Shown piece by piece: positions 31,566-54,122 of a DNA stretch of 64,000 nucleotides. Position 1 is the stretch's first letter, and each line of letters begins with the position of its first letter. The DNA is from a virus (taxonomy: Duplodnaviria > Caudoviricetes): positions 1 to 64,000 of IMG/VR virus record IMGVR_UViG_3300042340_000394. One strand, given 5' to 3'. Both the position numbers and the translations under genes were made by a program. The notes beneath the pieces are model-generated. The model made no database searches. It had not been told where the DNA came from and saw only the letters and a list, made by a program, of their open reading frames with translations.

Positions 31566-31568
31566 GGG

Positions 31569-33439: not shown

Positions 33440-34468
33440 GTGCCCCGCCCTCGCCGACAACGCCACGACGCCTCCCCGCAGCGCGAACTCCCCTTCGCCG
33501 CTACCCCTCGCGCTCGCGGCTCGTGGCACTCCGTCGAGTTGCCCGATGCTCGCGTGTTCGGCGGCGATGCGACGGAGCGCATCCCGCTCACGCCCGCCCT
33601 CGTCGAAGCGTTCCGCCGCGCGTACCTCGCCGCCATCACCGCCGCACGCAACGCGGGCGACTACCGCGAGGCGCTCCGTGCACGCGACACGCTAGCGGAA
33701 CTCGCGGCGACCTACGGCGCCTACCTCCGCGGACTGCGCGCGGGCCTCGACGCTGCGGGCATCGCACCGAAGGCGGTCGCCTCGTTCGTCGCGAAGGTCT
33801 CGCTCGCGCCCGGTGTGTTCTCCCCGCCGATCGAGGAGCGGAGCCTCGCCGCGTGGCAACGCGATGCGTTCCAGACGTTCACACGGCGCCGTGGCGAGTG
33901 GGAGCGCGCGGCGTGGTCGCGGGCGCAAGTGGCGTTCGCGGACCTTGCGTCGCTCGCGTCGAGTCGCCCCGTCACCCTGTACGTTGCTCGCGCGGAACGG
34001 GTCGTCGTCGAGGGCGTGAGCGTCGGCTTGCGACCGATGGCGGAGCGCACCGCGGCGCGGGCGCTCGACGTGCTCGCGGAGGCGCTGCGGCTGCTCCGGG
34101 TGCAGCGGCGCGTGCCGTGGCTCCTCGCGAGGATGCCGCCGCTCGTGCTCACCGTGGAGTGCGTTTCCGACGGCGTGCGGGTGGCGGGTGGCTACGAGCC
34201 GTCGAGGCGCACCGTCGAGGTGTGCGCGTCGCTCGCAGCGGACGAGACGCCGCGGGAACTTGCGCGAACGCTCGCCCACGAGGCGGGGCACCACGTATGG
34301 CGAACGTCGCTCTCCGGGGCTGCGCAGGCCGCGTGGGAAGCGTTCCGCAAGGGCGGGCACTGGATCAGCGACTACGCGCAGAAGAACGCAGAAGAGGCGT
34401 TCTGCGAGGCGCTAGGGTTGCTCGCGGCCTATGGCCCGCGGGCCGTCGGTGCGGAGGTCGCCGCGTAA
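33440..34468 (+). CDS. Zincin-type metallopeptidase domain protein; 3' end abuts the IscB element
   Basis: LAHEAGHHVW...ISDYAQKNAEEAFCE. Confidence 0.7.
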   Translation: MPRPRRQRHDASPQRELPFAATPRARGSWHSVELPDARVFGGDATERIPLTPALVEAFRRAYLAAITAARNAGDYREALRARDTLAELAATYGAYLRGLRAGLDAAGIAPKAVASFVAKVSLAPGVFSPPIEERSLAAWQRDAFQTFTRRRGEWERAAWSRAQVAFADLASLASSRPVTLYVARAERVVVEGVSVGLRPMAERTAARALDVLAEALRLLRVQRRVPWLLARMPPLVLTVECVSDGVRVAGGYEPSRRTVEVCASLAADETPRELARTLAHEAGHHVWRTSLSGAAQAAWEAFRKGGHWISDYAQKNAEEAFCEALGLLAAYGPRAVGAEVAA

Positions 34469-34777
34469 ACGACCTCATCCTGAAGGGTGAGGCTTTCTAA
34501 GGAGACTGAGAAAGCCCATGTTTACCAGTGTTAGCGAGGGTAGGGTTGGCAACCCGTTCGAGCCTCGCTACGTCGATCGGAACGCTTGCCTCGGGCAACG
34601 TACGGATGCTTCCTCAGTCCGTACCCACTTGCAGTGCGTGCAGTAGTCACGTCGGGTCAGACAGAAACGGGTGCGCACATGGGCGACGATCGACATTCAC
34701 GAGGGGAGCACCGCGGGGGAGCCACTCCGCGGTCGTCACGACAAGGCCGCAAGGCCCCAACTGAGGCGGTAACGCCA
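34465..34777 (+). ncRNA. omegaRNA scaffold, copy 1
   Basis: Non-coding region of about 310 nt upstream of iscB, near-identical to copy 2, with compensatory hairpin changes. Confidence 0.85.
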
Positions 34778-36145
34778 ATGATCGAGAAGAATCGTTCCGA
34801 AGAAGCGTGGGTTCCGGTGCTGGACAAGCGTGGCGTCCCGCTGATGCCGTGCCATCCCGCGCGAGCGCGTCAGATGCTTCGTGCGGGGCGTGCCGTGGTG
34901 GCGCACCACACGCCGTTCGTGATCCGACTCAAGGATCGCGTGGGCGGCGACGTTCAACCCGTCCGCGTCTGCGAAGATCCCGGCAGCAAGACCACGGGCA
35001 TCGCCGTGGTCCGCGAGATTCCCGCCGCCAGCGACGGCGATGGCCCGACCCGCGTCGTGCTGTTCAAGATGGAACTCGCGCACCGCGGCGCCGACGTCCA
35101 CAAGCAGATGGGGCAACGTTCGGCGAACCGCAAGCGCCGTCGCAGCGCGAACACGCGCTACCGTGAGCGACGGTACAGCAACCGCGCATCGTCGCGCCGC
35201 AAGGGTCGCCTTGCACCTTCGCTGCGTACGCGCCTCGACACGACGCTTTCGTGGACGCGGCGCCTCATGCGCTGGTATCCCGTCGCCGCCGTGAGCGTCG
35301 AGCGCGTTCGCTTCGACACGCAACTCATGGAGAACCCGGAGATCAGCGGCGTGGAGTACCAGCAAGGCACCCTCGCCGGATACGAGACGCGCGAGTACGT
35401 TCTGGAGAAGTGGGGCCGCTCGTGCGCCTACTGCGACGCGGGGAACGTGCCGCTCAACCTCGATCACGTCGTCCCGCGAGTGAGCGGCGGGAGCAATCGT
35501 CCGAGTAACCTCGTGCCCGCGTGTGTGCCCTGCAACCAGAAGAAGGGCGCGCAATCACTGACGACGTTCCTCAAGCGCGACCCGAAGCGTGCGGCACGCA
35601 TTCTCGCGGGGCTCAAGAAGCCCCTGCGGGACGCGGCGGCGATGAACTCGACGCGATGGGCGCTGGATCGTGAACTGCGGGCGCTCGGGGTGCCCGTCGA
35701 GGCAGCATCGGGCGGGCGAACGAAGTGGAACCGCCACCGCTTCAACGTTCCGAAGACGCACGCCAACGACGCCGTGTGCGTGGGAAACGTCGGCGGCGTG
35801 ATCGGCGCCGACACGCAGACGCTATACGTGGAGTGCATGGGGCGCGGCACGTATCAACGCCAACACTCGAACGCCTATGGTTTCCCTCGTGGCGCTCCGA
35901 AGATGCGTGAGAAGCGCGTACGGGGCTTCGGCACGGGTGATATCGTGCGCGCCGTGATGCCGAAGGGAAAACACGCCGGTATGCACGTCGGACGTGCCGC
36001 AGTCCGCGCGAAAGGTCAATTCGCGGTCTATGCGCAGGGCAAGAGGATCGACGTGATTTGGAAACACTGCCGCGTGTTGCAGCGCGCCGATGGCTACCGC
36101 TACGCGTGGCGCGAGGAGAAAAACGATGCGGTTACTAACCGATAG
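34778..36145 (+). CDS. iscB: RNA-guided endonuclease IscB
   Basis: PLMP, RuvC-I DPGSKTTG, Arg-rich bridge helix, RuvC-II ERVRFD, HNH (CAYC...DHVVP...N...CVPCN), RuvC-III THANDA. Confidence 0.95.
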   Translation: MIEKNRSEEAWVPVLDKRGVPLMPCHPARARQMLRAGRAVVAHHTPFVIRLKDRVGGDVQPVRVCEDPGSKTTGIAVVREIPAASDGDGPTRVVLFKMELAHRGADVHKQMGQRSANRKRRRSANTRYRERRYSNRASSRRKGRLAPSLRTRLDTTLSWTRRLMRWYPVAAVSVERVRFDTQLMENPEISGVEYQQGTLAGYETREYVLEKWGRSCAYCDAGNVPLNLDHVVPRVSGGSNRPSNLVPACVPCNQKKGAQSLTTFLKRDPKRAARILAGLKKPLRDAAAMNSTRWALDRELRALGVPVEAASGGRTKWNRHRFNVPKTHANDAVCVGNVGGVIGADTQTLYVECMGRGTYQRQHSNAYGFPRGAPKMREKRVRGFGTGDIVRAVMPKGKHAGMHVGRAAVRAKGQFAVYAQGKRIDVIWKHCRVLQRADGYRYAWREEKNDAVTNR

Positions 36146-36281
36146 GCGCTTCCCCACCGCCATGAATGGCTGTGCACCCGCGCTGGCAAGTCATGACGAC
36201 CACCGCCGCGTGGTTGCAGACCGTCGTGCCGACCGTGCGGACGTACGCGAACGGGCGGCGGGCAATGAAGGGTAAACGACG

Positions 36282-38686: not shown

Positions 38687-38777
38687 GTCGGCACGCCTCG
38701 CGGGAACCTCTCGCACGTCGAGGGTGAGCGCGAAGTTGAGCCAGCGGCAGCATCCACCGCACACGAAGGAAACGTCA

Positions 38778-39221: not shown

Positions 39222-39302
39222 CGTTCCGCGGCAAACGACGCCGAACGAGAACGTCGCGTTTTCCTCCCCATCGCGCCGCGCATGGTGTAACGTGAGGGCG
39301 CG

Positions 39303-40565
39303 ATGACCATTTTTCTCGACCACCACTCGACCACCCCTCCCTCCGAAGCCGTGATCGACGCCGTGGTGCGGGCGATGCGCGTCGCTGGCAACGCCTCGTC
39401 GTCGCACGAGGGTGGGAAGGCGGCGTCGAAGATCGTCGAGGATGCCCGCCGCTGCGTCGCCGAGACGATGGGCGGCGTCGATCCGGCAGACATCTACTTC
39501 ACTTCGGGCGCTACAGAATCGAACGGCATCGTACTCAGGTCAATCGTCGATGGCGAGAACGAGCGCGGGCGGCGCCCTCACATCGTCACTTCTGCGATCG
39601 AGCACAGCGCCATTCTCGTGCCCCTGCGTCAACTCGCGAAGCGCGGGCAATGCACGTTCACGGCAGTCCCCGTGGGCGCGTCGGGCATCGTGAACCCCGC
39701 CGACGTGGCCCGTGCGATCCGCCCCGACACGGTGCTCGTTTCCGTGATGGGCGCGCAGAATGAACTCGGCGGTATCCAGCCGATCGAAGAAATCGCAGCG
39801 GTCGCGCACGCTTACGGCGTGCCGATGCACTCCGATCTATGCCAGTCGTTCGGCAAGATTCCGCTGCGCGGCTTCGACTTCGCGAGCGCGAGCGCGCACA
39901 AGCTCAACGGACCTACCGGCGTGGGCTGCGTTCTGATTCCGCAACGTTTACTCGCGCGTATGTCGGTGCCTGCGCTCGGTGGCTCGCAGCAAAACGGCGT
40001 GCGCGGCGGCACGCTGAACCTGCACGGCATCGCCGGTTTCGGCGCCGCGTGCCGCGAAATGCGAACGTGGAACGTGGGGCCGCAGAACGTCGGCGGGCTC
40101 GCGGGTGAGGCGCTGCGACTCTGCCGCCTGCGCGACCTTATGCTCCGACTCCTGCGCGAGTCGCTCGGCGACGAAATCGTTCAGGTGAACGGCGCGATCG
40201 ACGCTCCGATCGGTTCGCCGCAAGCGACGAACGATCCGGCGCGACGACTGCGACTCCCGCACTCGCTCTCGGTTCGTCTCGTGGGCGTGTGCCCGATTTC
40301 GCTCGACGCCGCGGTGCGGAGCAAGATCGACGTGTCGGCGGCGGCGGCGTGCAAGTCGCTCGGCGGCGAGCGGAGTCACGTTCTCGAAGCGATGGGCATT
40401 CCCGACGATGGCGCGGTAGTTCGCATCGGCCTCGGCAAGTGCAACAACGAAGAGAACGTTCGCATGGCGGCGAAGGTGATTGCCGACGCGGCGATGCCGC
40501 TCGTGGGCGTAGGGTGCGACGTTCCCGCGGGCTGCGACGGCGGCGTGTGTCCGGCGCGGCGGTAG
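39303..40565 (+). CDS. iscS: Cysteine desulfurase (IscS/NifS family)
   Basis: FLDHHSTTP, FTSGATES, IEHSAI, SAHKLNGP (PLP lysine), SAAAACKS (catalytic Cys). Confidence 0.92.
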   Translation: MTIFLDHHSTTPPSEAVIDAVVRAMRVAGNASSSHEGGKAASKIVEDARRCVAETMGGVDPADIYFTSGATESNGIVLRSIVDGENERGRRPHIVTSAIEHSAILVPLRQLAKRGQCTFTAVPVGASGIVNPADVARAIRPDTVLVSVMGAQNELGGIQPIEEIAAVAHAYGVPMHSDLCQSFGKIPLRGFDFASASAHKLNGPTGVGCVLIPQRLLARMSVPALGGSQQNGVRGGTLNLHGIAGFGAACREMRTWNVGPQNVGGLAGEALRLCRLRDLMLRLLRESLGDEIVQVNGAIDAPIGSPQATNDPARRLRLPHSLSVRLVGVCPISLDAAVRSKIDVSAAAACKSLGGERSHVLEAMGIPDDGAVVRIGLGKCNNEENVRMAAKVIADAAMPLVGVGCDVPAGCDGGVCPARR

Positions 40566-40566
40566 G

Positions 40567-41022
40567 CTAGCGCGAGGAGCGACGGGCGCGGCGCGCGGGG
40601 GCGTCGGCCACCGCATCCTCGACGCTCTCGCCCATTTCCATAAGCCTTCGCGCGCACGCGAACGAGAAGGCGGTCTCCGCTTCGAGACCCTCCTGAATCC
40701 ACGCCTTGCCGATGTAGGCACGCTCCTCGGCGCTGCACCCACCGATCACGGCGCCGAAACACCGCTCGGTATGCAGGATCGCGATGGCCGTTGTCGCCGT
40801 CGAATAGGCGGTGAGAAGCGCCACGAGGGCGCCGCCCGCGGCGGGAACCTCGTCGAGCACGATGCCGGGGATCGCCTCACCGTAGATCCTCGCCACGTCC
40901 GCCCACTGGCGCTTGCCCGCGTCGACCGCTTGCCCCGCTCGGTACACGAAAACATGAAGCGGGTTCTCTCGCATGATGGCGACGAACTCGGGGTCGGGAG
41001 CGGTGCGGGCGGTGTTCTTCAT
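40567..41022 (-). CDS. Hypothetical protein
   Basis: Class I promoter. Confidence 0.65.
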   Translation of the reverse strand: MKNTARTAPDPEFVAIMRENPLHVFVYRAGQAVDAGKRQWADVARIYGEAIPGIVLDEVPAAGGALVALLTAYSTATTAIAILHTERCFGAVIGGCSAEERAYIGKAWIQEGLEAETAFSFACARRLMEMGESVEDAVADAPARRARRSSR

Positions 41023-41102
41023 GGTGAACCTTCTACGGCGGTGGCGACCCGATTCTTGCGCGGCCACACTGATTTCTCCTGCACGCACCGTGCGGCGGTA
41101 GG

Positions 41103-41330
41103 TTACCCGATCACCGCGTCGAGCGCGTCGACTCCGCTCTTGATCCGCGCCTCGATCGCACACACCGATGCGCCCTTGGTGGCGACGGTGAGTTCCGTGG
41201 CCTCGCACGGGTCGGCAACGTACTCCGCGATTGCGCTGCGGAGGCACCGACGCGCGGTTTCGAGTTGCGCGCGGAGCGTGCGGAGGTTCTGGCGAGCGGC
41301 TTCGAGTTGATTGCTGAATTGGTCTCGCAT
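41103..41330 (-). CDS. Small coiled-coil protein
   Basis: Class I promoter at 41331-41368. Confidence 0.6.
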   Translation of the reverse strand: MRDQFSNQLEAARQNLRTLRAQLETARRCLRSAIAEYVADPCEATELTVATKGASVCAIEARIKSGVDALDAVIG

Positions 41331-41470
41331 GGTCCCCCTTCTACGTCGCCAGCACGACGGACCTTACGCCGCGTCGCCGATTCCTCTCGCGCGCCGCGCA
41401 GCAAGCGGTGCGGCGGAAACCGACGGTGCGACGTAAGAACTCCGCGGCGCGAGGCGTAAGAGTGGGCACC

Positions 41471-41863
41471 ATGAACACGAACCCGATGGTTTCCGCAGTG
41501 TCCCGCTACGAAGATGCCGCCCGCGCCGCCGATGCCGCGCTCAACGCGATGTTCACGGCGTTCGGCATCGTCGGTCGCAAGGTCGTGTCCGTCGGTGGTG
41601 CGTACATCCCCGGCACCGAAGTCGGCGTGCGTGAGGCGAACGTCCTTCGCGGTCAACCGTGGAGCGTCCGCAAGGCCGACGGGTGCCTCGCCCGCCTGTA
41701 CGTCGGCGCGGGCGAAGCGGAGGTGTGCGTCGGCACCGTCGAGTCGGCGCGGTTGCGCGACGAGTTCGGGCACGTTGGCATCGTGGTCGACGTGACGCAG
41801 TGCATGGAGCACTGGAACGAGTTCGTGCTCGTGGTGCTCACGGGGATGCTTGAGCAGAAGTAG
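41471..41863 (+). CDS. Hypothetical protein
   Basis: Class I promoter at 41432-41470. Confidence 0.65.
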   Translation: MNTNPMVSAVSRYEDAARAADAALNAMFTAFGIVGRKVVSVGGAYIPGTEVGVREANVLRGQPWSVRKADGCLARLYVGAGEAEVCVGTVESARLRDEFGHVGIVVDVTQCMEHWNEFVLVVLTGMLEQK

Positions 41864-41948
41864 TCCGTCGCGAGAAGCGCGCCGTTCGCTATTGCAATCG
41901 CCCGCATAATCGGGCACCGTCGGCAGGGAACACTCGGAGAAAATCACA

Positions 41949-42539
41949 ATGGCAACCACACGCAAGTCCCCCAAGCGCGCCGCTGCTCGCAAGCCCGCCG
42001 CGAAGCGCCGCGCCGTGCGAAACCCCGTCGCCCGCGGCCTCGGCCCGGTCGATCGCGCGCTCAAGAAGATCGAGCGCGAAGTCGGCGAGTACGCCGGTTC
42101 CGACGCCGCGCAGAAGGCGATGGAGGCGCTCATCCTCGCCGTCCCGCTCAAGGGAAACATCGGCGAGTGGAAGAAGCAGATCAAGGACGCCATCATCGCC
42201 GATCGTGGCGAGAGCGACCGCAAGTACGTCACGGAGGCGATGCGCTCCGGCAAACCCGGTGTCTTCGTTCGGGCGACGAACCTCGTCGACTACTGGCAGT
42301 TCGAGGGCGACCTCATTCTGATCCACGGAGGCAAGTTCGGCGGCACCGAGAGCACGGGAGAAGTGGTCGTTCTCACGAAGGATCAACTCGTGCTCAGCAA
42401 GGCCGTCGCCGTGGACGGGAACATGGAGCACTACCCCGTCGAGAAGGCCGCGAAGGCGATCATCGAGGCGTACGGCTTCGGGAGTACCACGCGCGACCCG
42501 TGGTTCGAGGCGCCGAGCGCGCGCAACCGTCGGTACTGA
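41949..42539 (+). CDS. Tagged protein with an H1-like leader ending RRAVRNP
   Basis: MATTRKSPKRAAARKPAAKRRAVRNPV. Confidence 0.8.
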   Translation: MATTRKSPKRAAARKPAAKRRAVRNPVARGLGPVDRALKKIEREVGEYAGSDAAQKAMEALILAVPLKGNIGEWKKQIKDAIIADRGESDRKYVTEAMRSGKPGVFVRATNLVDYWQFEGDLILIHGGKFGGTESTGEVVVLTKDQLVLSKAVAVDGNMEHYPVEKAAKAIIEAYGFGSTTRDPWFEAPSARNRRY

Positions 42540-42562
42540 GAACGTCGAGCGAGAACACGAAC

Positions 42563-43186
42563 ATGGAAACCGAACGAGAGTACGCCGCGCGCGAGAAGCG
42601 CATGTTTCGTGCGCAGATCGCCGACACGGAGAAGCAGCCCCTCCGCGACCGTCAAGAGGCGCGCAGCGAGTTCCGCGAGGTGATGGCGCAGCACCCCGAT
42701 CGCGTCGCCGAACGCATCGCGTGGATTCTCGAAGGGAACTACGGCTTCGGGGCCTACACCGAGGCCCGCGAAGTGGTCGTGAACAAGCGCATGAACCGCG
42801 CTGCGTGGTTCGTGTCGATGGTCGGCGCGCTCGACCACTCGTGCCCGCCCGAGTTCACGATGGGCGCGTGGAAGACGCTCACCGCCGCGCAGAAGAAGAA
42901 CCTCGACGTCGCCGTGATGGCCGTGATCGAGGAGTACGCGAAGCAACTCGCCCCGGCGCGCAAGCCCGCCGCGAAGCGCAAGGCGTCGCGCAACGGCGCG
43001 AAGCGCGGCAAGATGATGAGCAAGGCCGAAGTGAACCGATCGTTCCGCGAGAACGTGCTCCCGCACCTTCGCCACACGGATCGCGTCTCGGTGCGTACGG
43101 CGTGGCTCGACTACACCGACGAACTGAACCGCGACGGTCGCATCTCGGATCACGCGCGGAACAACTGGGTCAATCCCTACCGCTGA
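42563..43186 (+). CDS. Two-module protein with an internal KRKASRNG tag
   Basis: PARKPAAKRKASRNG linker between modules. Confidence 0.75.
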   Translation: METEREYAAREKRMFRAQIADTEKQPLRDRQEARSEFREVMAQHPDRVAERIAWILEGNYGFGAYTEAREVVVNKRMNRAAWFVSMVGALDHSCPPEFTMGAWKTLTAAQKKNLDVAVMAVIEEYAKQLAPARKPAAKRKASRNGAKRGKMMSKAEVNRSFRENVLPHLRHTDRVSVRTAWLDYTDELNRDGRISDHARNNWVNPYR

Positions 43187-43574
43187 ATCCCGCCGCCCGT
43201 CGCTTCGTCACACGGAGCATGAACTGCACCCGCCGCCGTCTCCAGAAACACCGTCGCGCCGCCATCCGCACGCCCGCGTGGCGGAGCAACGGCACTTCGC
43301 ACGTTTTCCGCTGGTCCCGTGCGCTCGACCTGATCGAGTGCGCCGCGGTGCTCGACGGCGTGCGTGGCGAACCGCTGGCGCTCGGCGCGGGCGAACTCGC
43401 ATCGTTCGTCGGGCGCACCGCGGAGGCCACGGCGTGCCTCGCAGGGGCGCCGCCGTGGTTCGTCGCTGCGGTCGCCCGCCGCGCCGTGCGACTGCGCCTC
43501 GCGGACGAACTGGACGCCTTGCTGGCGTGGTGAAACGTTGCGACTGCGGGCGATCCCGTAGTACGGTGCCACGC

Positions 43575-44186
43575 ATGGCAACCACGAAAACAGAAGCCGC
43601 GCGCTACGTCGCGCGAGCGATCGGCGACGGCATCGTTCCCCTCACCGACGACGTGACCGTCGGCGCTGGCGACCTCACGGGCACGCGCCTGTTCGCCGTC
43701 TACGTCGATCGTGGGCGCAACAAGGGCCGCTACGACTTCTTGACGGTTCACGCCGCCGCGAGAGCGTTCGTCGATTTCGTCGGGGCCGACGAGGCGGTTG
43801 CCGCGGTCGATCGCGCCTACCTCCGCCGCGACGGCGAAGTGCCCGCCCGTGTGTCGGCGACGGCCCGCTACGACGACGTTCTCGCGCAGGCGGGCGTTCG
43901 CCCCGGCGCTCGCGTCGTGGTGGTGAAGGGCTCGCGCGGCATCGGGATCGACAAGGGCGTGACGCTCGCGATCGAGAACACGACGGTGTTGCCCGAGTCG
44001 AGCATGGCGGTCGCGGTGCGATTCATGGCGATGAACGGGAGCGCGTCGGGCCAGAAGCGGGTGCTGTACGCGCGCCACCCGAACCGACTCAGCGACGCCG
44101 ACGTGAGCCTCGCGAGCGGCAACGGCGCCGACAAGATCGTCGTGCGCGTGTCGCGCCCGTCGACTCGCAACGGTCGCTGCCGGTAG
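43575..44186 (+). CDS. Hypothetical protein with C-terminal STRNG
   Basis: TTGCGA...TACGGT-N7-ATG promoter. Confidence 0.7.
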   Translation: MATTKTEAARYVARAIGDGIVPLTDDVTVGAGDLTGTRLFAVYVDRGRNKGRYDFLTVHAAARAFVDFVGADEAVAAVDRAYLRRDGEVPARVSATARYDDVLAQAGVRPGARVVVVKGSRGIGIDKGVTLAIENTTVLPESSMAVAVRFMAMNGSASGQKRVLYARHPNRLSDADVSLASGNGADKIVVRVSRPSTRNGRCR

Positions 44187-44247
44187 CTCCGACGAGAAAA
44201 TCGACGCGGCGGTGATAGGTTCGGCGCCGACCCGACGTACAAGCGGC

Positions 44248-44490
44248 ATGAGCAGCAACGAAGTTTCGGTTCGCATTTTCGTCGAAGTAGTCAACGGCAC
44301 GATCGGCACCGGGCGGTACGAGTCGTACGGGCGCACTTCGACGGCGGTCCCGCCCGCCATCGGCGACTCCGTGGTGCTCGAAGACGGACTCAAGCGCCGC
44401 GTGGTCGACCGCGTGTGGTCGTGCCCCGATATCTTCCGGGGCGTCACGCTTTACCTCGACGACCCGCGCATCACGGAGCGGCACGCCTAG
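44248..44490 (+). CDS. Hypothetical protein
   Basis: Class I promoter variant. Confidence 0.6.
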   Translation: MSSNEVSVRIFVEVVNGTIGTGRYESYGRTSTAVPPAIGDSVVLEDGLKRRVVDRVWSCPDIFRGVTLYLDDPRITERHA

Positions 44491-44553
44491 CGGGAGCGAG
44501 AAATCGCCGCAGCGCCGCAAGAACACCCGCCCACCGCACGCAGAAGGCACACC

Positions 44554-44838
44554 ATGATCGACACGAAACCGTTTCTGTTCGACACGAGTAAAGACATCAA
44601 GAACCACACCGCGGTGAGTGTGTGGCTTCTCTCGGGCCGCAAGATCCGGGTGACCACTTCGCGGTGGGAGAACTTCGGCAACGAGCCCGACGACGTTAGC
44701 GCGAAAACCGAGCACTTCCACGACGGCCAGTGGCGCGAGGTGCTCCCGTGGCACCGCATCGAGGCCACGGGCGAGAACGAGACCCCCGCCGCGCACCTCG
44801 CCCTCGCAGCGCGCACGATCGAGTTTCTCGATGCGTGA
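44554..44838 (+). CDS. Hypothetical protein
   Basis: Class I promoter variant. Confidence 0.65.
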   Translation: MIDTKPFLFDTSKDIKNHTAVSVWLLSGRKIRVTTSRWENFGNEPDDVSAKTEHFHDGQWREVLPWHRIEATGENETPAAHLALAARTIEFLDA

Positions 44839-45115
44839 CGCGACCGACACCACCGACACCGCCACGCGCTACCGCATCACGATCGCGGGAGTGAGCGACG
44901 ACTACAAGGTCACCGCCGTGCTCGCGCTTCGCAAGCACTTCGGTCTCGGGTTGACCGATGCCCTCACGATGCTCCGCGAGGGCCGCGTCGGCGACTCGCG
45001 CATCGCGTTCCAGTTCTCGCGCGACGACGCCGAAGCGATGGCGCAGGCGCTCAACTCGATCTTCGCCGCTCACCGCGGCACCGGGCAACCGTTCCGCACC
45101 TCGGAGGCACCGTGA
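44831..45115 (+). CDS. Ribosomal L7/L12 C-terminal-domain-like protein
   Basis: KVTAVLALRKHFGLGLTDA...DAEAMAQAL. Confidence 0.55.
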   Translation: MRDATDTTDTATRYRITIAGVSDDYKVTAVLALRKHFGLGLTDALTMLREGRVGDSRIAFQFSRDDAEAMAQALNSIFAAHRGTGQPFRTSEAP

Positions 45116-45891
45116 GACACACGATCGACGTTCTCGCAGAACTCGCGAAACTCAACGCCGCCACGCACGCTGCCCGCAAGGAGTCGGAGCGCATCGAGGC
45201 CGTGCTCAACGCTACGGCGAGGAGCATCGCCGACGCTGCGCGCACGGGCAAGGCGATCGACCCGCAAGACCTTCGGCGCGCGAGCGAGTACGGTGCCGAG
45301 AAGGCTCGCAACGACCGCGTAGTCGCCGCAGCGAAGGCTCAGGACACCGCGCGTCGGGCGCCGCTCGTTCGCGAACTGCGCGGCGTGACGGACGACCCCG
45401 CGAGCACGTACGCTGCGATCGTTGCGACGCTCACGGAACGGTACGGCGCCCCGAGCGCCGAGCCGTACCTCTCGGGCAAGGACCGCTGCGGGTGGGAGGT
45501 TCTCACGCATACGACGAAGGCGCCGCGGTGGCGCATCGGTCGCGCGACGTTCATCGTGTCGATCGACGAGCGCGGTGTGGGCGTGTACGCGACAGGCGAC
45601 CACGATCACTTCGGCCCGACCCGAAGCGTGAGGTTCATCGTTCGCCCGAACGCTGAACTGGCGCGTCGCATCGTCACTGGCGAAGTCTCGTTCTCGTCCG
45701 TCGCATCGGTGGGCGAAGTGCAGATGCGTTACGGCTACTGCGCGCCATTGCTCGCGCCCGTCGCCGTTGCGCTCGACGTGATCGATCACTGCGTCCGGTA
45801 CTCCCGCAACGAAGAGTGCGCGTTCCTCGATGCGCAGGCCATCGCAGATTTCGCTGAATACAGGCGCCGCTACAACGTCGGATGGGGATGA
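45112..45891 (+). CDS. Hypothetical protein
   Basis: Coupled ORF. Confidence 0.6.
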   Translation: MRHTIDVLAELAKLNAATHAARKESERIEAVLNATARSIADAARTGKAIDPQDLRRASEYGAEKARNDRVVAAAKAQDTARRAPLVRELRGVTDDPASTYAAIVATLTERYGAPSAEPYLSGKDRCGWEVLTHTTKAPRWRIGRATFIVSIDERGVGVYATGDHDHFGPTRSVRFIVRPNAELARRIVTGEVSFSSVASVGEVQMRYGYCAPLLAPVAVALDVIDHCVRYSRNEECAFLDAQAIADFAEYRRRYNVGWG

Positions 45892-46352
45892 TCCCCACCG
45901 TCACACAACTCCTCGCGCTCGCCCCCGACGGCAACGTCACCCTCCGGGTGGTGAGGCGCGAGCACGTCGGCCCCTCGCCGCACGTCGAGGTGACCGCCGA
46001 GGTGGTCTCCGTGAAGCGCGGCATCGTCGTGTGGCGCGACGACGACGGGCGCACGATCACGCCGCGTGACTCGTGGCTGTTCGAGACGCTCCGCGGTGCC
46101 CCCGTCGGGACTCCCGCCGCCACGGTCGCGGAGAAGGCCCGCGAGGCGCGGGAGAGCGCCACCGTCGGGCCGTTCGTGATCGAGTCGAGCCTCACGTCGC
46201 GCAAGGTGACGCTGCGCCACGCACACGGCGGGCTCGTGCCGACGGGCGACGGGCGCACCGAAACGGAGGTGTCGTTCGCGGACTTCACCGCAGCGCGAGA
46301 GCACGCGAAGGCTTGCCTCGACGCGCTCCTCGCGGGGCGGGTGCATCCGTGA
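45888..46352 (+). CDS. Hypothetical protein
   Basis: ATGA coupling. Confidence 0.55.
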   Translation: MIPTVTQLLALAPDGNVTLRVVRREHVGPSPHVEVTAEVVSVKRGIVVWRDDDGRTITPRDSWLFETLRGAPVGTPAATVAEKAREARESATVGPFVIESSLTSRKVTLRHAHGGLVPTGDGRTETEVSFADFTAAREHAKACLDALLAGRVHP

Positions 46353-46506
46353 TCGTTGTCTCGCTCGAACGTGCGGCGACGAAGTGCCTCTACGCGATCG
46401 ACGGCGCGTTCTTCGCGCTGGCAGCGTCGCGTCTCGACCCGATGGCCTTGTGCTGTTTTCTTCTCACCACCGCCGTGCTAATCGGCATCGAAAACGAGGA
46501 ATCGTA

Positions 46507-47008
46507 ATGCGTCACGTTCTCACAGCACTCGCGACCGCCGACGCGCTCGGCAAGCCCTTCGAGCAATCGCGCGACGACCGCGCCCGCTACTCGTGGTGCC
46601 ACGACCCCGACAACACGTTTCTCGCGTGCGACGACGGCGGGCGCCAGTTCGGCCTCGGACCCGACGGCGAGAAGGCGGGGGCGTTCACGGACGACACGCA
46701 GATGGCGGTCGCCCTCGCGCAGTCGCTCCTCGCGTGCGGCGGCTTCGATGCCGAACACGCGCGAGGTGAGTACACCGAGTGGTATCGCGGCGCGGGCTTC
46801 GGCGGGCGCGCTCGCGGAACGGGCGGCACGATCCGCACTGCGCTCGAAACGGGTGCCCCCGTCGACCTTCGCGCGGGAGGCCAGTACGTCGGCAACGGCG
46901 CGGCGATGCGTGAAAAGACAAAAAACGAGACATTGCTGGATGGAATCGCGCTATAGTGTCGCGAGACATGCACCACGACGCTCCTATTCGCGTCGCTCCC
47001 ATCGGCGT
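46507..47008 (+). pseudogene. ADP-ribosylglycohydrolase (DraG/ARH family), disrupted
   Basis: ADALGKPFE, FTDDTQM and GNGAAMR, then an 80-bp insertion, then RVAPIGV, then the IscB element. Confidence 0.85.
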
Positions 47009-47319
47009 GTAATCGACCTCCGCCTTCGGGCGGAGGCTTTCTAAGGAGACTGAGAAAGCCCATGTTTACCAGTGTTAGCGAGGGTAGGGTTGGCAACCCG
47101 TTCGAGCCTCGCTACGTCGATCGGAACGCTTGCCTCGGGCAACGTACGGATGCTTCCTCAGTCCGTACCCACTTGCAGTGCGTGCAGTAGTCACGTCGGG
47201 TCAGACAGAAACGGGTACGCACATGGGCGACGATCGACATTCACGAGGGGAGCGAACCGCGGTGCCTCGCGGTTCCGTCACGACAAGGCCGCAAGGCCCC
47301 AACTGAGGCGGTAACGCCA
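47009..47319 (+). ncRNA. omegaRNA scaffold, copy 2
   Basis: Near-identical to 34465-34777. Confidence 0.85.
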
Positions 47320-48702
47320 ATGATCGAGAAGAATCGTTCCGAAGAAGCGTGGGTTCCGGTACTGGACAAGCGCGGCGTTCCGCTGATGCCGTGCCATCCC
47401 GCGCGAGCACGCCAGTTGCTCCGTGCGGGGCGTGCGGTGGTGGCGCATCACACGCCGTTCGTGATCCGTCTCAAGGATCGTGTCGGTGGTGACGTGCAAC
47501 CCGTCCGGGTCTGCGAAGATCCCGGCAGCAAGACGACGGGCATCGCCGTCGTCCGCGAGGTTCCCGCCGCCAGCGAAGGCGACGGCCCGACGCGCGTCGT
47601 CCTGTTCAAGATGGAACTCACGCACCGCGGCGACGTTATCCGCGGGCAGATGGAGAGGCGATCGTCTAGCAGAAGGCGCCGTCGCCTAGCAAACCTTCGC
47701 TACCGACCGGCGCGTTTCAGCAATCGCCGACCCGCGAAGGGCACGCTGCGACCGTCTCTCAACCACCGCGTCGAAACGACGCTCTCATGGACTCGTCGTC
47801 TCATGCGCTGGTATCCCGTCGCCGCCGTGAGCGTGGAGCGGGTGCGTTTCGACACGCAGTTGATGCAGAACCCGGAGATCAGCGGCGTGGAATACCGGCA
47901 AGGCACGCTCGCAGGTTACGAGACTCGGGAGTGGGTGTTGGAGAAGTGGGGTCGCTCGTGCGCCTACTGCGACGCCGAGAACGTGGCGCTGAACCTCGAT
48001 CACGTCGTGCCGCGGGTGAGCGGCGGAAGCAGTCGCCCGAGCAACCTCGTGCCCGCCTGCGTTCCCTGCAACCAGCGCAAGGGCGCGCAACCACTGGCGG
48101 TGTTTCTCCAACGTGACCCGAAACGCGCGGCGCGCATTCTCGCAGGACTCAAGGAGTCGCTGCGCGACGCGGCGGCGGTGAACTCGACCCGATGGGCGCT
48201 CGATCGCGCGCTGCGGTCTCTCGGGGTGCCCGTCGAGGCGTCAAGTGGCGGGCGAACGAAGTGGAACCGCCACCGTTTCAACGTTCCGAAGACGCACGCC
48301 AACGACGCCGTGTGCGCGGGTAACGTCGGCGGTGTGATTGGTGCCGACACGCAAACGCTCTACGTTTACAGCACGGGGCGCGGCACGTACCAACGGCAAC
48401 ACTCGGACGCCTACGGTTTCCCTCGCGGCGTTCCGAAGATGCGCGAGAAGTCCGTGCGTGGATTCCGCACTGGCGATATGGTCCGTGCTACACCGCCGCG
48501 AGGCAAGTACGCTGGAACGTACGTCGGGCGCGTTGCCGTGCGGGCGAATGGTCAATTCGCCATTTGCGCTAAAGACAAGAGGATCGACGTGATTTGGAAA
48601 CACTGCGGCGTGTTGCAACGCGCCGACGGATACCGATATGCGTGGCAAGAGGAGAAGCGCGATGCCGTCGCGGTCCGAAAATCCGCTCCCCTTCCGCCGT
48701 GA
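47320..48702 (+). CDS. iscB: RNA-guided endonuclease IscB
   Basis: PLMP, split RuvC and HNH motifs all appear intact. Confidence 0.95.
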   Translation: MIEKNRSEEAWVPVLDKRGVPLMPCHPARARQLLRAGRAVVAHHTPFVIRLKDRVGGDVQPVRVCEDPGSKTTGIAVVREVPAASEGDGPTRVVLFKMELTHRGDVIRGQMERRSSSRRRRRLANLRYRPARFSNRRPAKGTLRPSLNHRVETTLSWTRRLMRWYPVAAVSVERVRFDTQLMQNPEISGVEYRQGTLAGYETREWVLEKWGRSCAYCDAENVALNLDHVVPRVSGGSSRPSNLVPACVPCNQRKGAQPLAVFLQRDPKRAARILAGLKESLRDAAAVNSTRWALDRALRSLGVPVEASSGGRTKWNRHRFNVPKTHANDAVCAGNVGGVIGADTQTLYVYSTGRGTYQRQHSDAYGFPRGVPKMREKSVRGFRTGDMVRATPPRGKYAGTYVGRVAVRANGQFAICAKDKRIDVIWKHCGVLQRADGYRYAWQEEKRDAVAVRKSAPLPP

Positions 48703-49250
48703 ATAGCGGCGCAACCGCTCGGGCAAATCGTGACTACCGCCCAATGGCGGAACCGCAAGTGAGCGGGCAACTCACCGACCGCGAGGCTTCGGCGCTGGCC
48801 GAAGCGAGGCGCCTTCTCGCCGCTGCGGAGGCCGAAATGCGTTACGGCGCGGGGTGCCGCGCGGCGGCTCTCCCGATGCTCTACGACGCCCTCGCCGCCG
48901 TCGCGGCGCTGGTGTCGGCGACCGCGACGGAACTCGAACGATCGCGGGCGCGCGGCGAGTGAGAACGATTAGTTCCACCACGTTCGGAGAGTATTTCGCC
49001 GACGCTCCGCCGTCTCTCGCGACGGAGCGACTGCGACGCGTCGTGTTATCGGGCAACCCTCCGCATTCTGAGTACGAGTACGGGTGGATGGCAGACCGCT
49101 TCGGTCGGCACACCGCCGATGCCGAGAAGTCGTGGCTTCGAGCGAACGGTTTCCGGTTCAACGGCGGCAAGTGGTGGCGGAGCGATGGGTGAGAAGGCGC
49201 AGCAACAACGAAGTTGTGCCGCCCCGCGCTCTCCGGTATGATCCTACCCC

Positions 49251-49871
49251 ATGAGCAAGAAAAGCAAGACGCGAGTCCGACGTTCGGTTCGCAACTCCGG
49301 CGAGATCACCATCTATCTCAAGTCGTCGGACGGGTACAGTGCGACGCGACACTTCAAGACCCTCGCTGGCGCACGCAAGTTTGCGCGCAAGACGATGGGT
49401 GAGCGTTACAAAATCGGATCGTGGTACGCCGTATCCGGCGGCGGTACGATGCGTATGACGTCCGTAGGCGCGTCGCCCGAATCGCTTCTCGCGCCCGAGC
49501 CGAAGGCCGCTCCGACCGCGTGTGAGTGCGACGCAGGCTACAACGAAGACACCGGGCACTGGGCAGGCCCGTGCGACTACTGCCGTTCGCCCGCGGGGCT
49601 CGCCGCGAAGGCGAAGCAGGAGGCGAAGGCGAAGCTCGACGACGAGAAGTTCATCGAGCTCCGCGCGCTCGCCCGAAAACTCGGGAACGATCGGTACGGC
49701 AACGTGGCTCGCGTAAGCGGAACGGCGCACCATTCCCGCGGGCTGCGGTGGGATGAAGTACACCCGAAGGACCGCAAGGCCATCGAAGCGGCGGCGAAGC
49801 GCATGAAGCTCGACATCAAGCACCGCGAGTACAGTCTCGCGCTCGCCTACGATTTCGACCCCGGATTCTGA
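49251..49871 (+). CDS. Tagged hypothetical protein (RRSVRNS)
   Basis: TTGTGC...TATGAT promoter; CEC...CDYC motif. Confidence 0.75.
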   Translation: MSKKSKTRVRRSVRNSGEITIYLKSSDGYSATRHFKTLAGARKFARKTMGERYKIGSWYAVSGGGTMRMTSVGASPESLLAPEPKAAPTACECDAGYNEDTGHWAGPCDYCRSPAGLAAKAKQEAKAKLDDEKFIELRALARKLGNDRYGNVARVSGTAHHSRGLRWDEVHPKDRKAIEAAAKRMKLDIKHREYSLALAYDFDPGF

Positions 49872-49899
49872 ACCACTGAATCCACGGCGTCGGCGCGGC

Positions 49900-50421
49900 C
49901 TAGAGGGCGCGGCCCTCGTACGGGTCGATGCGGTTCGCTTCGGCGAAGGCGCGAACGTCGCGCCGAAGTTGCTTGCGCGCGGCTTCAACCGACGCCTTCG
50001 TGCGACCGAGCGAGACCTTCTTCGTGCCCGTGATGTGCGCGAACATTTCGGCGCTGCGACTCACGGCCTCGCGAGGATCATCGTCGGGGTCGAGCAGCGG
50101 CGTGTAAACGCTCTGCACGTCGTATGCAATCCGCTGGCGGTCTACGCGAACGAGGCGAGGCTTCATCGCGAAGAACTCCGCCTCGTCGTGGATGCCCACC
50201 GGCCCCGCGCCTGTCTGCGGCGTAGCGCCAGCACGATCGAGCACGAACGCCGCCCCGCGATACCCCAACCTCAGTACGAAAACGCCATCGACGAAGTTGT
50301 CGAAACTGTACTCGGCGCCGATGATGAACGGGGCTCGCACCGGGCGCATCCCGTCGGGGTAGAGAATCGTCGGCTCCGGGTTGAGGAGCGAACGTCGGCG
50401 AGCGGGCTTGCGGGTGAGCAT
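49900..50421 (-). CDS. Tagged hypothetical protein (RRRSLLNP)
   Basis: TTGCCC-N18-TAGAGT-N6-ATG. Confidence 0.7.
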   Translation of the reverse strand: MLTRKPARRRSLLNPEPTILYPDGMRPVRAPFIIGAEYSFDNFVDGVFVLRLGYRGAAFVLDRAGATPQTGAGPVGIHDEAEFFAMKPRLVRVDRQRIAYDVQSVYTPLLDPDDDPREAVSRSAEMFAHITGTKKVSLGRTKASVEAARKQLRRDVRAFAEANRIDPYEGRAL

Positions 50422-50542
50422 CGTGCGACTCTACGCGAGCACGCCGCGCACGGGCAAGCGCCGCGAATCCCCGCCACGCGCTCCCCGCGTAGCGACGTTT
50501 TCGCCGTTGACACCCCCCCCCCTCCCGTGCTCCGATGCGGGT

Positions 50543-51046
50543 ATGTTCACACGAGCGATTTGCACGGTCGACTTCACGTTCGAGCAAGACAACTTCGACG
50601 ACGACGCCAAGGGTGATCGCGACGCCGACGCGAAGAAGTTCGCGAAGGGGCTGCTCAAGAAGTACAAGCGTCCGCACATGGACGACCTCACGAGCATGGT
50701 GATGGCGCTCGAACAGAAGGCGTCCGAAGCGGTCGCGAAGAAGGCGAAGGTCCGGCAGATCAACGGCGGCTCGTACGACGGCGGAGACGTGCTCTCCGTG
50801 CCGTACTCCGTCGAGAGCGTGGCCGACGTGCAGCGCCTCCGCGACGTGTTCGACAGCGAAGGTCGCAGCTACGACGAAGCGCCCTACATCACCGCGAGCG
50901 GCATGATCCTCTGGCTCGACGGCTACAACGGCAAGGCGTACGGACTCAGTTCGTCCGTTCGCAACGACTCGGACCTCGACGAGTGGCTCGAAGCGAACAC
51001 GCCCAAGAAGCGCGTCGCCCGCAAGCCCAAGAAGTCGCGCCGCTGA
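50543..51046 (+). CDS. Hypothetical protein with a basic C-terminal tail
   Basis: TTGACA followed by C10 upstream; ends KKRVARKPKKSRR. Confidence 0.7.
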   Translation: MFTRAICTVDFTFEQDNFDDDAKGDRDADAKKFAKGLLKKYKRPHMDDLTSMVMALEQKASEAVAKKAKVRQINGGSYDGGDVLSVPYSVESVADVQRLRDVFDSEGRSYDEAPYITASGMILWLDGYNGKAYGLSSSVRNDSDLDEWLEANTPKKRVARKPKKSRR

Positions 51047-51077
51047 ATCCCCGCCCCGTCACTCGCGTCTACTCGGA

Positions 51078-51551
51078 GTGACCGTCTCCCTCCCCACCGC
51101 CCACGCGGTCGCCCTCGCGCTCTCGGCGCTGTTCCCCTCCGTCGCCCGCACGCTGCACGACCCGCTGGCCCGCGACACGTTCGTCGTGCGCGCGAAGATG
51201 GTCGACTACGCTTGCTCCGACGCGGGCGTCACACGTTGCGCCACGCTGCACGCGATCGTGTTCGTCGAGTCGGGCTACCGGCTACGCAACGCGCGGGCTT
51301 CGCTGGCGGCGTGCAACCCGTACGGCACCGACGACTGGCAACAGGCGACGTGCGCCGCCCGGTCGCTCGCGTCGGCCCTGCGCCGTTGTCGCGCTACACC
51401 GCGGGCGTTGAATCGTTACCAGTTCGGTGAATGCGCGGTGCCTCGCGGGCGTAGATATCGTAGAGCGCGCCTACGTTCGGCGATCTACGTTCGCAGCGTG
51501 ACGCGCATCGCAACAGCAATCGAGAGGCAACTTGAACAAGTACGACATTAG
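51078..51551 (+). CDS. Lytic transglycosylase-like protein
   Basis: LHAIVFVESGY (catalytic Glu motif), ALNRY; signal-like N-terminus. Confidence 0.5.
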   Translation: MTVSLPTAHAVALALSALFPSVARTLHDPLARDTFVVRAKMVDYACSDAGVTRCATLHAIVFVESGYRLRNARASLAACNPYGTDDWQQATCAARSLASALRRCRATPRALNRYQFGECAVPRGRRYRRARLRSAIYVRSVTRIATAIERQLEQVRH

Positions 51552-52107
51552 CCTTCTGGCCGTGATGCTTGCAGCGGTGGCGGCGGTGTACGCGGTATGG
51601 CGGGCGCGGCAACGACGCGCGAAGGCCACTGCGCGCCCCACGGCGGCGCTCCCGAGCCTCGACGCGACCACGGCGACGGAGCCCTCCGTGCCGCCACCGC
51701 AGCGGGCGCTCACCGTCCGCGAGCGACGGCGCGAGGAGATCGTGACGCTCGCGCAGGCCGACCGATGCCTGTACTGCTCCGCGGAACCGACCGCGCCGCT
51801 CCCTTACGCGCAATTCACCCGTCCGTCGGTCGACGTGACGGCGCTCCTCACGGGCGACCTCCCGAAGCACTGGCGGGTGCATAACCCGACGGAACTCGAT
51901 GCGATCCCGCTTGTCTGCGACGCCCACGCCACGATCGCACGTTCGGCAGTGGAACTGCGCGCCGCGAAGGCGCACGCCGCCTACGCCGAGTTCGTGAGCG
52001 CGCAGAAGGAGGAAATGCACGAGTTCACGGCGCACGGGCTCGACGAACAGATGCGAGCGGAGGCCGATCGTGTCCGCAAGGGCGTGGCCCGCGGAGGGGC
52101 GTCGTGA
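51532..52107 (+). CDS. Membrane-anchored hypothetical protein
   Basis: N-terminal TM; CLYC...CDAH. Confidence 0.6.
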   Translation: MNKYDISLLAVMLAAVAAVYAVWRARQRRAKATARPTAALPSLDATTATEPSVPPPQRALTVRERRREEIVTLAQADRCLYCSAEPTAPLPYAQFTRPSVDVTALLTGDLPKHWRVHNPTELDAIPLVCDAHATIARSAVELRAAKAHAAYAEFVSAQKEEMHEFTAHGLDEQMRAEADRVRKGVARGGAS

Positions 52108-52658
52108 GACACGCATGGAAACGCTCCGGTGGCGTGTGGCAATGCGCGAACTGCGCGCTGGCACGGTGGGCGGAGCGCCTCGACAACGGGCGCAAGTACC
52201 GCACGTTCAACGTCTACTCGCGCGACGCAGTAACGCGATTCAGCGCCGACGATCAACCCGTGCCGCCGTGCGAACCGGCGACGCTCTCGTCGTGCGTGCT
52301 GATCGAGCGCAACGGACGTTTCGCGACCATCAAGTCGCGCAAGCACAACGGGCAACCGGAACTCCTCGGCGGCAAGGCCGAACCCGGCGAGTCGCCCGAA
52401 GAGACGGCGGTGCGAGAGGCACGCGAAGAGGGCGGCGTCGAGGCGATCAACCTGCGCCTCGTGCTCGTGGCGAGCATCGGCGGGCACCGCTGCTCGGTGT
52501 TCGCTGCGGAGGTCGCCAGCGGCGCACGACTGCGTGGCGGCGCCGAAGGCGAGGCCGTGTGGAGCACGCGCGAGCAACTGCTCACGGAGGGCACGTACCG
52601 CGCCGACTTCCCGGCGATCGTCGAAGCGTACGATCGGGTGACTCGCGCGCCGCGATAA
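52104..52658 (+). CDS. Nudix hydrolase
   Basis: GGKAEPGESPEETAVREAREEGG Nudix box. Confidence 0.88.
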   Translation: MRHAWKRSGGVWQCANCALARWAERLDNGRKYRTFNVYSRDAVTRFSADDQPVPPCEPATLSSCVLIERNGRFATIKSRKHNGQPELLGGKAEPGESPEETAVREAREEGGVEAINLRLVLVASIGGHRCSVFAAEVASGARLRGGAEGEAVWSTREQLLTEGTYRADFPAIVEAYDRVTRAPR

Positions 52659-52681
52659 TCGGTGTTATCGTGGTCGCCATT

Positions 52682-53368
52682 ATGAGACAACTGCGACTGC
52701 CCGTCGCGCCCGCTCCGAGAATCGTCCGCGAGACAAACGCCGTCGCGCTCACGGGGGTGGGTCGCGTGCGCACGAACAACGAAGACTGCGTGGGCATCCG
52801 CGAAGAGCTTCTCGTTCTCTCCGACGGCATGGGCGGGCACGCTCACGGCGAAGTCGCCTCCGAGGCGGCGGTGCGAACGTTCCTCGACTACGCGAAGCGC
52901 GTGCGGTCGCAACGTGCGGAGGGCGTGCTCGAAGAGGCGTTCCGACTCGCGCAGCGCACGGTGGCGCTCGTGCCCGATGATGCGGGCTGCACGCTCGTGG
53001 CGGTGCGCGTCGAAGAGCGATGCGTCGTCGTGGGTCACACGGGCGACTCGCGGGCGTACCTTCTGCGGCGCGGAAACGCGATCTCACTCACGCGCGACCA
53101 CGCGGTGCAGAGCATGCTCACGCGATGCCTCGGTGGCGGTTGTCGCGTCGCGTGGGAACCGACGATCGCGCGCATCGCCACGCTCCCCGGTGACGCCGTG
53201 ATGCTATGCTCCGACGGGCTGCACGGCATGATCGACGACGAAACGATCGCGTCGCTGTGGGATGCGTCGGGCGGCGATATCGAACGTTTCGCCGTCGATG
53301 CGCACAACGAAGCGATGGCGATGGGCGGCGACGACAACTGCTCGATCGTCGTGGCGAGGTGCCGGTGA
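52682..53368 (+). CDS. PP2C-family Ser/Thr phosphatase
   Basis: RTNNED, SDGMGG, GDSRAY, LTRDH, CSDGL and GGDDN motifs. Confidence 0.93.
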   Translation: MRQLRLPVAPAPRIVRETNAVALTGVGRVRTNNEDCVGIREELLVLSDGMGGHAHGEVASEAAVRTFLDYAKRVRSQRAEGVLEEAFRLAQRTVALVPDDAGCTLVAVRVEERCVVVGHTGDSRAYLLRRGNAISLTRDHAVQSMLTRCLGGGCRVAWEPTIARIATLPGDAVMLCSDGLHGMIDDETIASLWDASGGDIERFAVDAHNEAMAMGGDDNCSIVVARCR

Positions 53369-53572
53369 GCCTCGCGCTGCGAGTGACGATGGCGGTGTTC
53401 CGCGAGGGGTGGCGCCCGTGCGACGCGCGATGCGAGCGGTGGCGCAACTGCGTTTCGGGCGCCGTCGGTACGCGGGCCGACGTGCTCCGGTGCGGGCTCG
53501 CGCTGCTAACGGCGGGCGGAGAGAATCGCACGGCGTCGTGAATAATCGCGGGGCGCGGGCCGTCGCAAGGGC

Positions 53573-54117: not shown

Positions 54118-54122
54118 GCACG

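Follow-up and report, generated by a model that had tools for sequence, protein, structure and literature searches.

The DNA analyzed here (the window) comprises the initial 64 kb of IMG/VR record IMGVR_UViG_3300042340_000394, a linear virus record of 87.6 kb (G000; Caudoviricetes) with an estimated completeness of 71%. Two iscB genes lie within it (copy 1, 34778-36145; copy 2, 47320-48702), the products of which are 83% identical. Copy 2 stands in the remains of a gene for an ADP-ribosylglycohydrolase (ARH) and is probably an ordinary IscB-omegaRNA element in a phage ARH gene, taking its guide from the flanking DNA, with decay having set in later around its working parts. That the guide should come from the disrupted gene is expected behavior of IscB and not a discovery in itself; what is presented is a new phage-borne case of IscB/OMEGA with one unexplained insert of 80 nucleotides (nt).

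Cas9 descends from IscB elements, whose natural functions beyond bacterial chromosomes have been documented only sparsely. For homing, the present phage makes a concrete test case, in that it carries two diverged, intact IscB-omegaRNA copies, each in a conserved gene and both beside the same candidate target-adjacent motif (TAM). The empty site is available at the DNA level for copy 2 (in a related genome) and through an intact protein homologue (P0039) for copy 1.

The interrupted ARH gene

The open reading frame (ORF) that begins with the ATG at 46507 matches the Pfam family ADP_ribosyl_GH (PF03747), residues 5-135 aligning with positions 3-128 of the 287-position model (E = 2.8e-19), and the fragment finds DraG/ARH matches in the Protein Data Bank (PDB). 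Among 3123 candidate proteins, 37 longer ARH relatives were recovered at E ≤ 0.001. The best eight of these 37, which are 62-85% identical overall to the 149-residue query, were aligned; all eight are full-length homologues that read GNG[A/G/T]AMRVAPIGV followed by Trp or Tyr, and the closest proteins (P0001 and P0002) are approximately 90% identical to the fragment across the N-terminal part. A search for ARH in IMG/VR yielded a single relative at 36% identity, and a profile search of that database gave none.

An earlier note on this DNA had described an ARH frame running to GNGAAM(R), an 80-bp insert containing TATAGT, a 20-mer encoding RVAPIGV and then the omegaRNA, and each of these lies where it had been placed. 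The final residue of the fragment, Arg, is encoded by 46909-46911. The gene was also rightly called dead, the frame stopping after GNGAAMR. The remainder of ARH had been described as unrecognizable beyond the element, and codons 143 to ~318 are indeed gone, but the last 9 nt (two codons plus stop) were found at 48754-48762, overlapped by the GTG start codon (48759) of the next gene.

The intact form of the locus is seen in a related metagenome contig (L004), which is collinear with the window on both flanks and carries an intact ARH gene of 321 codons at the same position. Window positions 45852-46910 are 84% identical to L004 7336-8404, and positions 48754-48962 are 83% identical to L004 8958-9166. 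The two sequences therefore represent a presence/absence polymorphism at one locus, the empty allele of L004 being intact and agreeing with the guide at 18/20 positions, with GTGGTA directly after the match. Two blocks of the window, 48963-51087 (~2.1 kb) and 45117-45851 (~0.7 kb), are missing from this contig, which is collinear elsewhere, and the ARH/IscB neighborhood is, on this comparison of sequences, a mosaic. The ORFs of block 48963-51087 match no Pfam family, and the small genes flanking the locus gave no family match in Pfam or PHROGs.

The guide segment and its source

The 20-mer CGCGTCGCTCCCATCGGCGT (46989-47008), encoding RVAPIGV, lies directly 5′ of position 1 of the HEARO model, and the identity to ARH possibly extends for a further 2 nt (GT, 47009-47010). 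Within the window the 20-mer matches only its own locus at up to three mismatches. That this segment stems from ARH and not from chance follows from its 18/20 identity to the DNA of L004 and from the presence of RVAPIGV in 8/8 homologues; on this point, as on the position of the 20-mer next to the omegaRNA scaffold, the earlier description stands. The presumed target of the guide falls in the most conserved motif of the ARH protein, as is typical of homing sites.

In both copies the DNA preceding the scaffold is that of the interrupted gene (ARH for copy 2; a gene with an HExxH motif for copy 1). Because IscB guides consist of the DNA flanking the omegaRNA end, an ARH-derived guide needs no special retention. 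The proposal that the guide had been kept after the gene died is accordingly superfluous, since the arrangement is the standard IscB layout and copy 1 has it too, with no insert.

IscB copy 2 and its omegaRNA scaffold

The copy 2 protein is identified by NCBIfam NF040563 (guided_IscB; equivalog “RNA-guided endonuclease IscB”), with a score of 394 bits (cut-off, 175; E = 4e-118), and by the Pfam families RRXRR (E = 6.7e-63) and HNH (E = 4.9e-10); its top PDB matches are IscB chains (7xht/7utn). The sequence PLMP occurs at residues 21-24. The HNH and RuvC-type motifs, which we take to be the catalytic ones, are identical between the two copies. Both iscB frames are open, with a synonymous divergence (dS) of 0.58 and a ratio of nonsynonymous to synonymous divergence (dN/dS) of 0.18.

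Directly upstream on the same strand is the omegaRNA scaffold. The match to HEARO (RF02033) begins at 47009 and covers the full model (positions 1-211), its 73.5 bits (E = 7.9e-15) falling short of the gathering score (83), and two more hairpins lie between the end of the model and the iscB start codon. The scaffolds of the two copies are 93% identical, compared with 82% for the coding DNA. Of 94 predicted scaffold pairs, two are changed on both sides (compensatory) and three on one side, and none is broken; the differences are limited to two hairpins in which pairing is retained. Thus copy 2 IscB and its omegaRNA still look functional, and its working parts look maintained.

Homology between the copies sets in exactly where the scaffold does (34465 and 47009) and continues to about 40-60 nt past the stop codons. 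Their relatives elsewhere are distant: the nearest IscB in IMG/VR is 51% identical (14 loci), and among genomes, where 80 of 245 relatives were retained, the nearest is 58% identical over a partial match and 56% over full length. An exact search of IMG/VR with a 32-mer from the scaffold gave no matches, and a phage collection contained no match to 45800-49300. Among the closest cellular relatives is an IscB with 55% identity in a lake-derived Opitutaceae metagenome-assembled genome (MAG; L056), a weak hint at the host phylum.

IscB copy 1 and a candidate TAM

Copy 1 is a clean insertion in the HExxH-motif gene, with the same guide arrangement and no extra insert. Its scaffold (RF02033, 34465-34714) covers the full model (positions 1-211) and scores 83.3 bits against the gathering score of 83. 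One of five matches, the intact homologue P0039 (81% identical), reads ...AVGAEVAAWLQTIVPTVRTYANGRRAMK..., where the window has ...AVGAEVAA directly before the scaffold and AAWLQTVVPTVRTYANGRRAMK directly after the element. The boundary is ambiguous by the 5 nt GCCGC, which are present on either side.

Copy 1 is followed directly by GTGGTT, and the intact ARH genes of L004 and two further related sequences (L005 and L006) have GTGGTA directly after the guide match in 3/3 cases. The two original insertion sites consequently share 5/5 bases (GTGGTW) at the position expected for a TAM, for which the probability by chance is approximately 0.002 at this base composition. This supports canonical insertion at both sites and makes GTGGTW a plausible TAM for the phage IscB. 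At copy 2 the junction is ambiguous by 2 nt, as the scaffold too begins with GT. The coordinates of the features are collected in Table 1.

Table 1. Features of the two IscB loci, with positions in the window
Feature	Position	Strand	Evidence
ARH, N-terminal 135 codons, ending GNGAAMR	46507..46911	+	PF03747; PDB ARH/DraG; 84% DNA identity to L004 7336-8404
Orphan insert, 80 nt; GC 48.8%; CG at both borders	46911..46990	.	Absent from intact ARH of L004, L005 and L006
ARH-derived 20-mer, codons R135-V141; guide segment of omegaRNA	46989..47008	+	RVAPIGV in 8/8 homologues; 18/20 in L004-L006
OmegaRNA (HEARO) scaffold of copy 2	47009..47319	+	RF02033 at 47009-47257; 93% identical to copy 1
iscB copy 2, 460 aa, open frame	47320..48702	+	guided_IscB; Pfam RRXRR, HNH; PDB IscB
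3′ non-coding end of element, alignable to copy 1	48703..48741	+	Alignment of copies; last ~5 nt of copy 1 unrecognizable here
12 nt of unknown origin between element and ARH remnant	48742..48753	.	Nothing equivalent in copy 1 or L004
Last two ARH codons plus stop (R K *)	48754..48762	+	Homology to L004 8958-9166 restarts at 48754
Copy 1 guide, final 20 nt of interrupted HExxH-motif gene	34445..34464	+	Sequence; HEARO begins at 34465
IscB copy 1 element: scaffold 34465-34777, iscB 34778-36145, 3′ end to 36209	34465..36209	+	Intact homologue P0039
GTGGTT, candidate TAM; gene resumes in frame (W L Q ...)	36210..36215	+	Directly 3′ of copy 1

Two further features of the element ends may be recorded. 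At the far end of copy 1 (36199-36214), the sequence ACCAC, which belongs to the element, is complementary to GTGGT in the candidate TAM, and the two can form a stem closed by a 6-nt loop; this could be related to end recognition by an IS200/IS605-type transposase; the corresponding site in copy 2 reads ACTAC, and its pairing partner is gone. At the other end, bases 2-4 of the scaffold (34466-34468 and 47010-47012) supply a TAA that ends the frame of the interrupted gene after the guide in both copies, a pattern seen in two cases only that may be due to chance.

The 80-nt insert

The limits of the insert (46911-46990) are set by comparison with the intact ARH gene of L004. Inside these limits an A-rich tract occupies 46912-46925, TATAGT is located at 46952-46957, and the ARH frame terminates at a TAG (46954-46956). 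Its GC content is 48.8%, versus 72.2% for the ARH fragment, and equally AT-rich windows of 80 nt make up 0.24% of the record.

BLAST searches of the insert against the 87.6-kb record and 140 loci returned short matches only, the longest in loci not chosen with this query being 12 nt (14 nt with a 100-nt query); matches of 15-25 nt in L135-L142 belong to loci that had been retrieved using the insert itself. Two exact scans of IMG/VR gave no matches, and none was found in the lake MAG that carries the 55%-identical IscB. Among 401 genomes of the phylum of that MAG, 37 gave matches at E ≤ 0.1, the best of which (25 nt, 92% identity, E = 0.0013 per genome) is at chance level. As a structured RNA the insert was rejected (fold z-score -0.51; besides HEARO, Rfam offered no more than a weak match in antisense, with E = 0.027). 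A degenerate copy of the guide at its 3′ end was likewise discarded, the 10/12 local match being equaled in 165/5000 shuffles and in 1849/5000 genome windows.

Proposed course of events

Comparison with the intact gene shows that an IscB-omegaRNA (OMEGA, ISC/IS200-IS605-type) element entered ARH between codons V142 and W143, beside GTGGTA. Elements of this type terminate on one side in the scaffold, their guide being transcribed from the adjoining host DNA. Transcription entering from the co-directional upstream genes would then produce an omegaRNA with an ARH guide, and the complex would presumably recognize and cleave element-free ARH alleles, in which the TAM comes directly after the guide match. 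During co-infection the element might in this way home into relatives, or competitors might be harmed. A later deletion would have taken ARH codons 143 to ~318, the TAM and the far end of the element, and because these parts are deleted copy 2 can hardly be excised any more. Both the deletion and the 80-nt insert would be secondary events.

This course is congruent with what is described for IscB elements in a preprint by Meers et al., according to which the guide is not part of the element itself, cleavage by the nuclease takes place at the empty donor joint beside the TAM, the elements preferentially share the orientation of the upstream gene, and most are without TnpA. Such an orientation fits transcription of the guide from outside the element. 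No terminator-like site was found between the co-directional upstream genes and the guide of copy 2, so that read-through would transcribe the guide, as it must do for copy 1.

Several points weigh against this course of events. Why the insert should end exactly where a guide-sized ARH remnant begins is left to coincidence and so goes unexplained. The exact search of IMG/VR with the 20-mer gave no matches, that is, no perfect target. Each of the three intact relatives differs from the guide at two synonymous positions (2/20): positions 9 and 12 in L004, and positions 12 and 18 in L005 and L006, position 18 being 3 nt from the TAM. The candidate TAM is drawn from two sites only, one of them read from relatives. 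The dN/dS value is an average over the whole divergence between copy 1 and copy 2, and a recent loss of function in copy 2 is compatible with it. Finally, Y1 TnpA (PF01797) was not found in G000 (87.6 kb, 71% complete), in a search for which the control was positive in 6/14 known genomes; with no TnpA in the record, the element may have arrived either by transposition or by homing.

These results bear directly on the suggestion that the nuclease is aimed at related genomes with an intact ARH. Such genomes exist, and their site is followed by the TAM-like GTGGTA, but since each intact ARH differs at 2/20 positions, cleavage of these relatives is uncertain. The check that had been proposed, namely to search for the 20-mer and to read its 3′ TAM, thus gave GTGGTA in 3/3 related intact ARH genes but no exact match in IMG/VR.

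Alternative explanations

The first alternative, which we consider unlikely, is that copy 2 is a domesticated nuclease that supplies its own promoter. The guide remnant would have been kept by selection after ARH died, the insert would act as the promoter (-10 TATAGT, with a start near 46964) and free the omegaRNA from reliance on read-through, and the whole would be a fixed-guide weapon against phages with intact ARH. TATAGT agrees with TATAAT at 5/6 positions, the A-rich tract at 46912-46925 sits where an UP element would be expected, and the composition of the insert is like that of regulatory DNA. Against this, an equally good -10 hexamer is present in 3990/20000 shuffles of the insert (20%), and the nearest -35-like hexamers stand at 13 or 19 nt from TATAGT, outside the 16-18 nt spacing. 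A sigma-70 scan found no promoter-like site in 46300-49300 or in 35001-55000; it gave one site in 15001-35000, which is the chance level, and it may not fit the promoters of this phage. Copy 1 lacks any such insert, and read-through is possible for copy 2 as well. The evidence that the insert adds a promoter of its own is therefore thin, and the corresponding claim of the earlier note is not upheld: one -10-like hexamer with no usable -35 is all that was found, and read-through suffices. Nor can the order that had been proposed, with the gene dying and a promoter then being added, be read from the sequence, any more than the time at which the insert arrived relative to the element.

The same alternative gains from the exact position of the insert, which stops precisely where an ARH remnant of 20-22 nt begins. 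It gains, too, from the fact that copy 2 has lost its TAM and far end but kept an intact IscB and omegaRNA, a combination that fits domestication. The remnant would cover the effective spacers of 14-16 nt described for engineered IscBs (PMC11666462), but one HEARO nuclease is described as preferring 24-nt spacers (PMC9755519), so that 20 nt is not necessarily the exact guide and the idea of a remnant trimmed to precisely the guide is not sharp. No second example was found, and the insert has no relatives in the searches made.

In a more elaborate form, to which we attach slightly less probability again, copy 2 would be a fixed-guide weapon or homing cassette in which the excision end and TAM have been deleted and a guide-sized piece of ARH kept. 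The AT-rich insert would provide a private promoter together with a stop codon preventing ribosomes from reaching the guide, and the cassette would be aimed at the invariant ARH catalytic-loop motif of competing phages. If this were true, the locus would be a naturally occurring intermediate on the way from selfish OMEGA elements to guided nucleases that serve a host with a single spacer. Were the insert indeed a promoter, it would exemplify one way for a guide located outside the element to escape its dependence on transcription of the host gene.

Homing mobile elements favor conserved motifs, and two events 20 nt apart need no functional link. The insert could, on these grounds, be what a second mobile element, unrelated to the first, left behind in the conserved ARH motif, or else break-repair filler at that site, and it would have no role. 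Both insertion points do fall within GNGxAMRVAPIGV, the best-conserved part of the protein (invariant save x in the eight homologues), the borders of the insert show a 2-nt microhomology (CG), and the insert lacks structure, relatives and coding capacity. It is, however, also devoid of terminal repeats, hairpins and likeness to known elements, and no other ARH homologue has an insertion here (L004, L005 and L006 being the ones read at the site). A random scar within a few bases of the 5′ edge of the guide would be a coincidence, judged a posteriori, of the order of a few per cent. We hold this explanation to be rather improbable, more so than either version of a self-promoted nuclease.

Least probable of all is that copy 2 is a decaying relic that has lost its far end, TAM flank and host gene and for which guide and insert are irrelevant: the three rearrangements at one locus, the lower HEARO score (73.5 bits, under the gathering score, vs 83.3 for copy 1) and the absence of a perfectly matching target in IMG/VR and L004-L006 suit it, but the 460-codon frame is open with the same HNH and RuvC-type motifs as copy 1, dN/dS is 0.18, the scaffold changes are confined to two hairpins with their pairs kept, and the arrangement is unchanged in contigs from other runs.

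Comparison with known systems

The ordinary IscB-omegaRNA element that we favor agrees with the OMEGA elements of the ISC/IS200-IS605 family in its protein type, in the omegaRNA upstream on the same strand and in the guide taken from the flank. It also resembles them, as they are portrayed by Meers et al. (preprint), in having a motif, the candidate TAM GTGGTW, on the other side of the empty site and in sharing the orientation of the upstream gene. Unlike these elements it resides in a virus record in which no TnpA was found, copy 2 has been immobilized by deletion of its far end and TAM flank, and an orphan insert of 80 nt abuts the copy 2 guide. With respect to HEARO RNA (RF02033), both copies match the full model (1-211), whereas copy 2 falls below the gathering score and has two extra hairpins.

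There are similarities to the free-standing homing endonucleases of phages: a nuclease gene is present here and absent from the L004 locus, the target is a conserved motif in a conserved gene, and the site in the carrier has been destroyed. The difference is that recognition would be by an RNA guide and not by protein. Transposon non-restorative homing of OMEGA elements between co-infecting phages is treated as theoretical in a 2026 review (PMC13565253). A further parallel is TldR, the domesticated TnpB with a fixed guide, which is described as a phage-encoded protein of transposon nuclease origin that was retained, with its neighboring guide RNA, once mobility had been lost; TldRs are, however, described as nuclease-dead repressors derived from TnpB, whereas the copy 2 protein is an IscB with apparently intact nuclease motifs.

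For OgeuIscB the TAM is given as NWRRNA (PMC12660989) and the spacer as 16 nt (PMC12660989; PMC11666462). GTGGTA fits this TAM at 6/6 positions and GTGGTT at 5/6, the TAM of the phage enzyme being a candidate only. The phage protein has the same domain order as OgeuIscB but is a distant relative (E = 1e-20, partial alignment).

Assembly support and other features of the record

The record is present in contigs from many lake-water metagenome runs. The junctions of the insert are covered by contigs of two other runs, X13 (46206-47058) and X15 (46709-46947), with zero differences, although these runs may stem from one sampling campaign. As the two contigs cross the junctions unchanged, an assembly artefact is unlikely. 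Among the matches listed for four runs, at low depth, there was no joint skipping the insert or the element, no loose end at 46910 and no element-free variant. The runs listed for the record include no RNA dataset. Numerous third-position differences over iscB are probably due to copy 1 contigs having been aligned at the 80% likeness setting.

In X13 and X15 the summed contig depth rises to ~360-400 at 49525-49725, compared with ~5 elsewhere, and reaches ~2400-2700 at 49618; this peak is a short stretch resembling something very abundant in these samples. Elsewhere on the minus strand of the window are a full-length transfer-messenger RNA gene at 9451-9823 (RF00023, 113.9 bits) and, at 15501-15578, a match to the CyVA-1 small RNA (RF02965, 52.9 bits vs a gathering score of 41.4).

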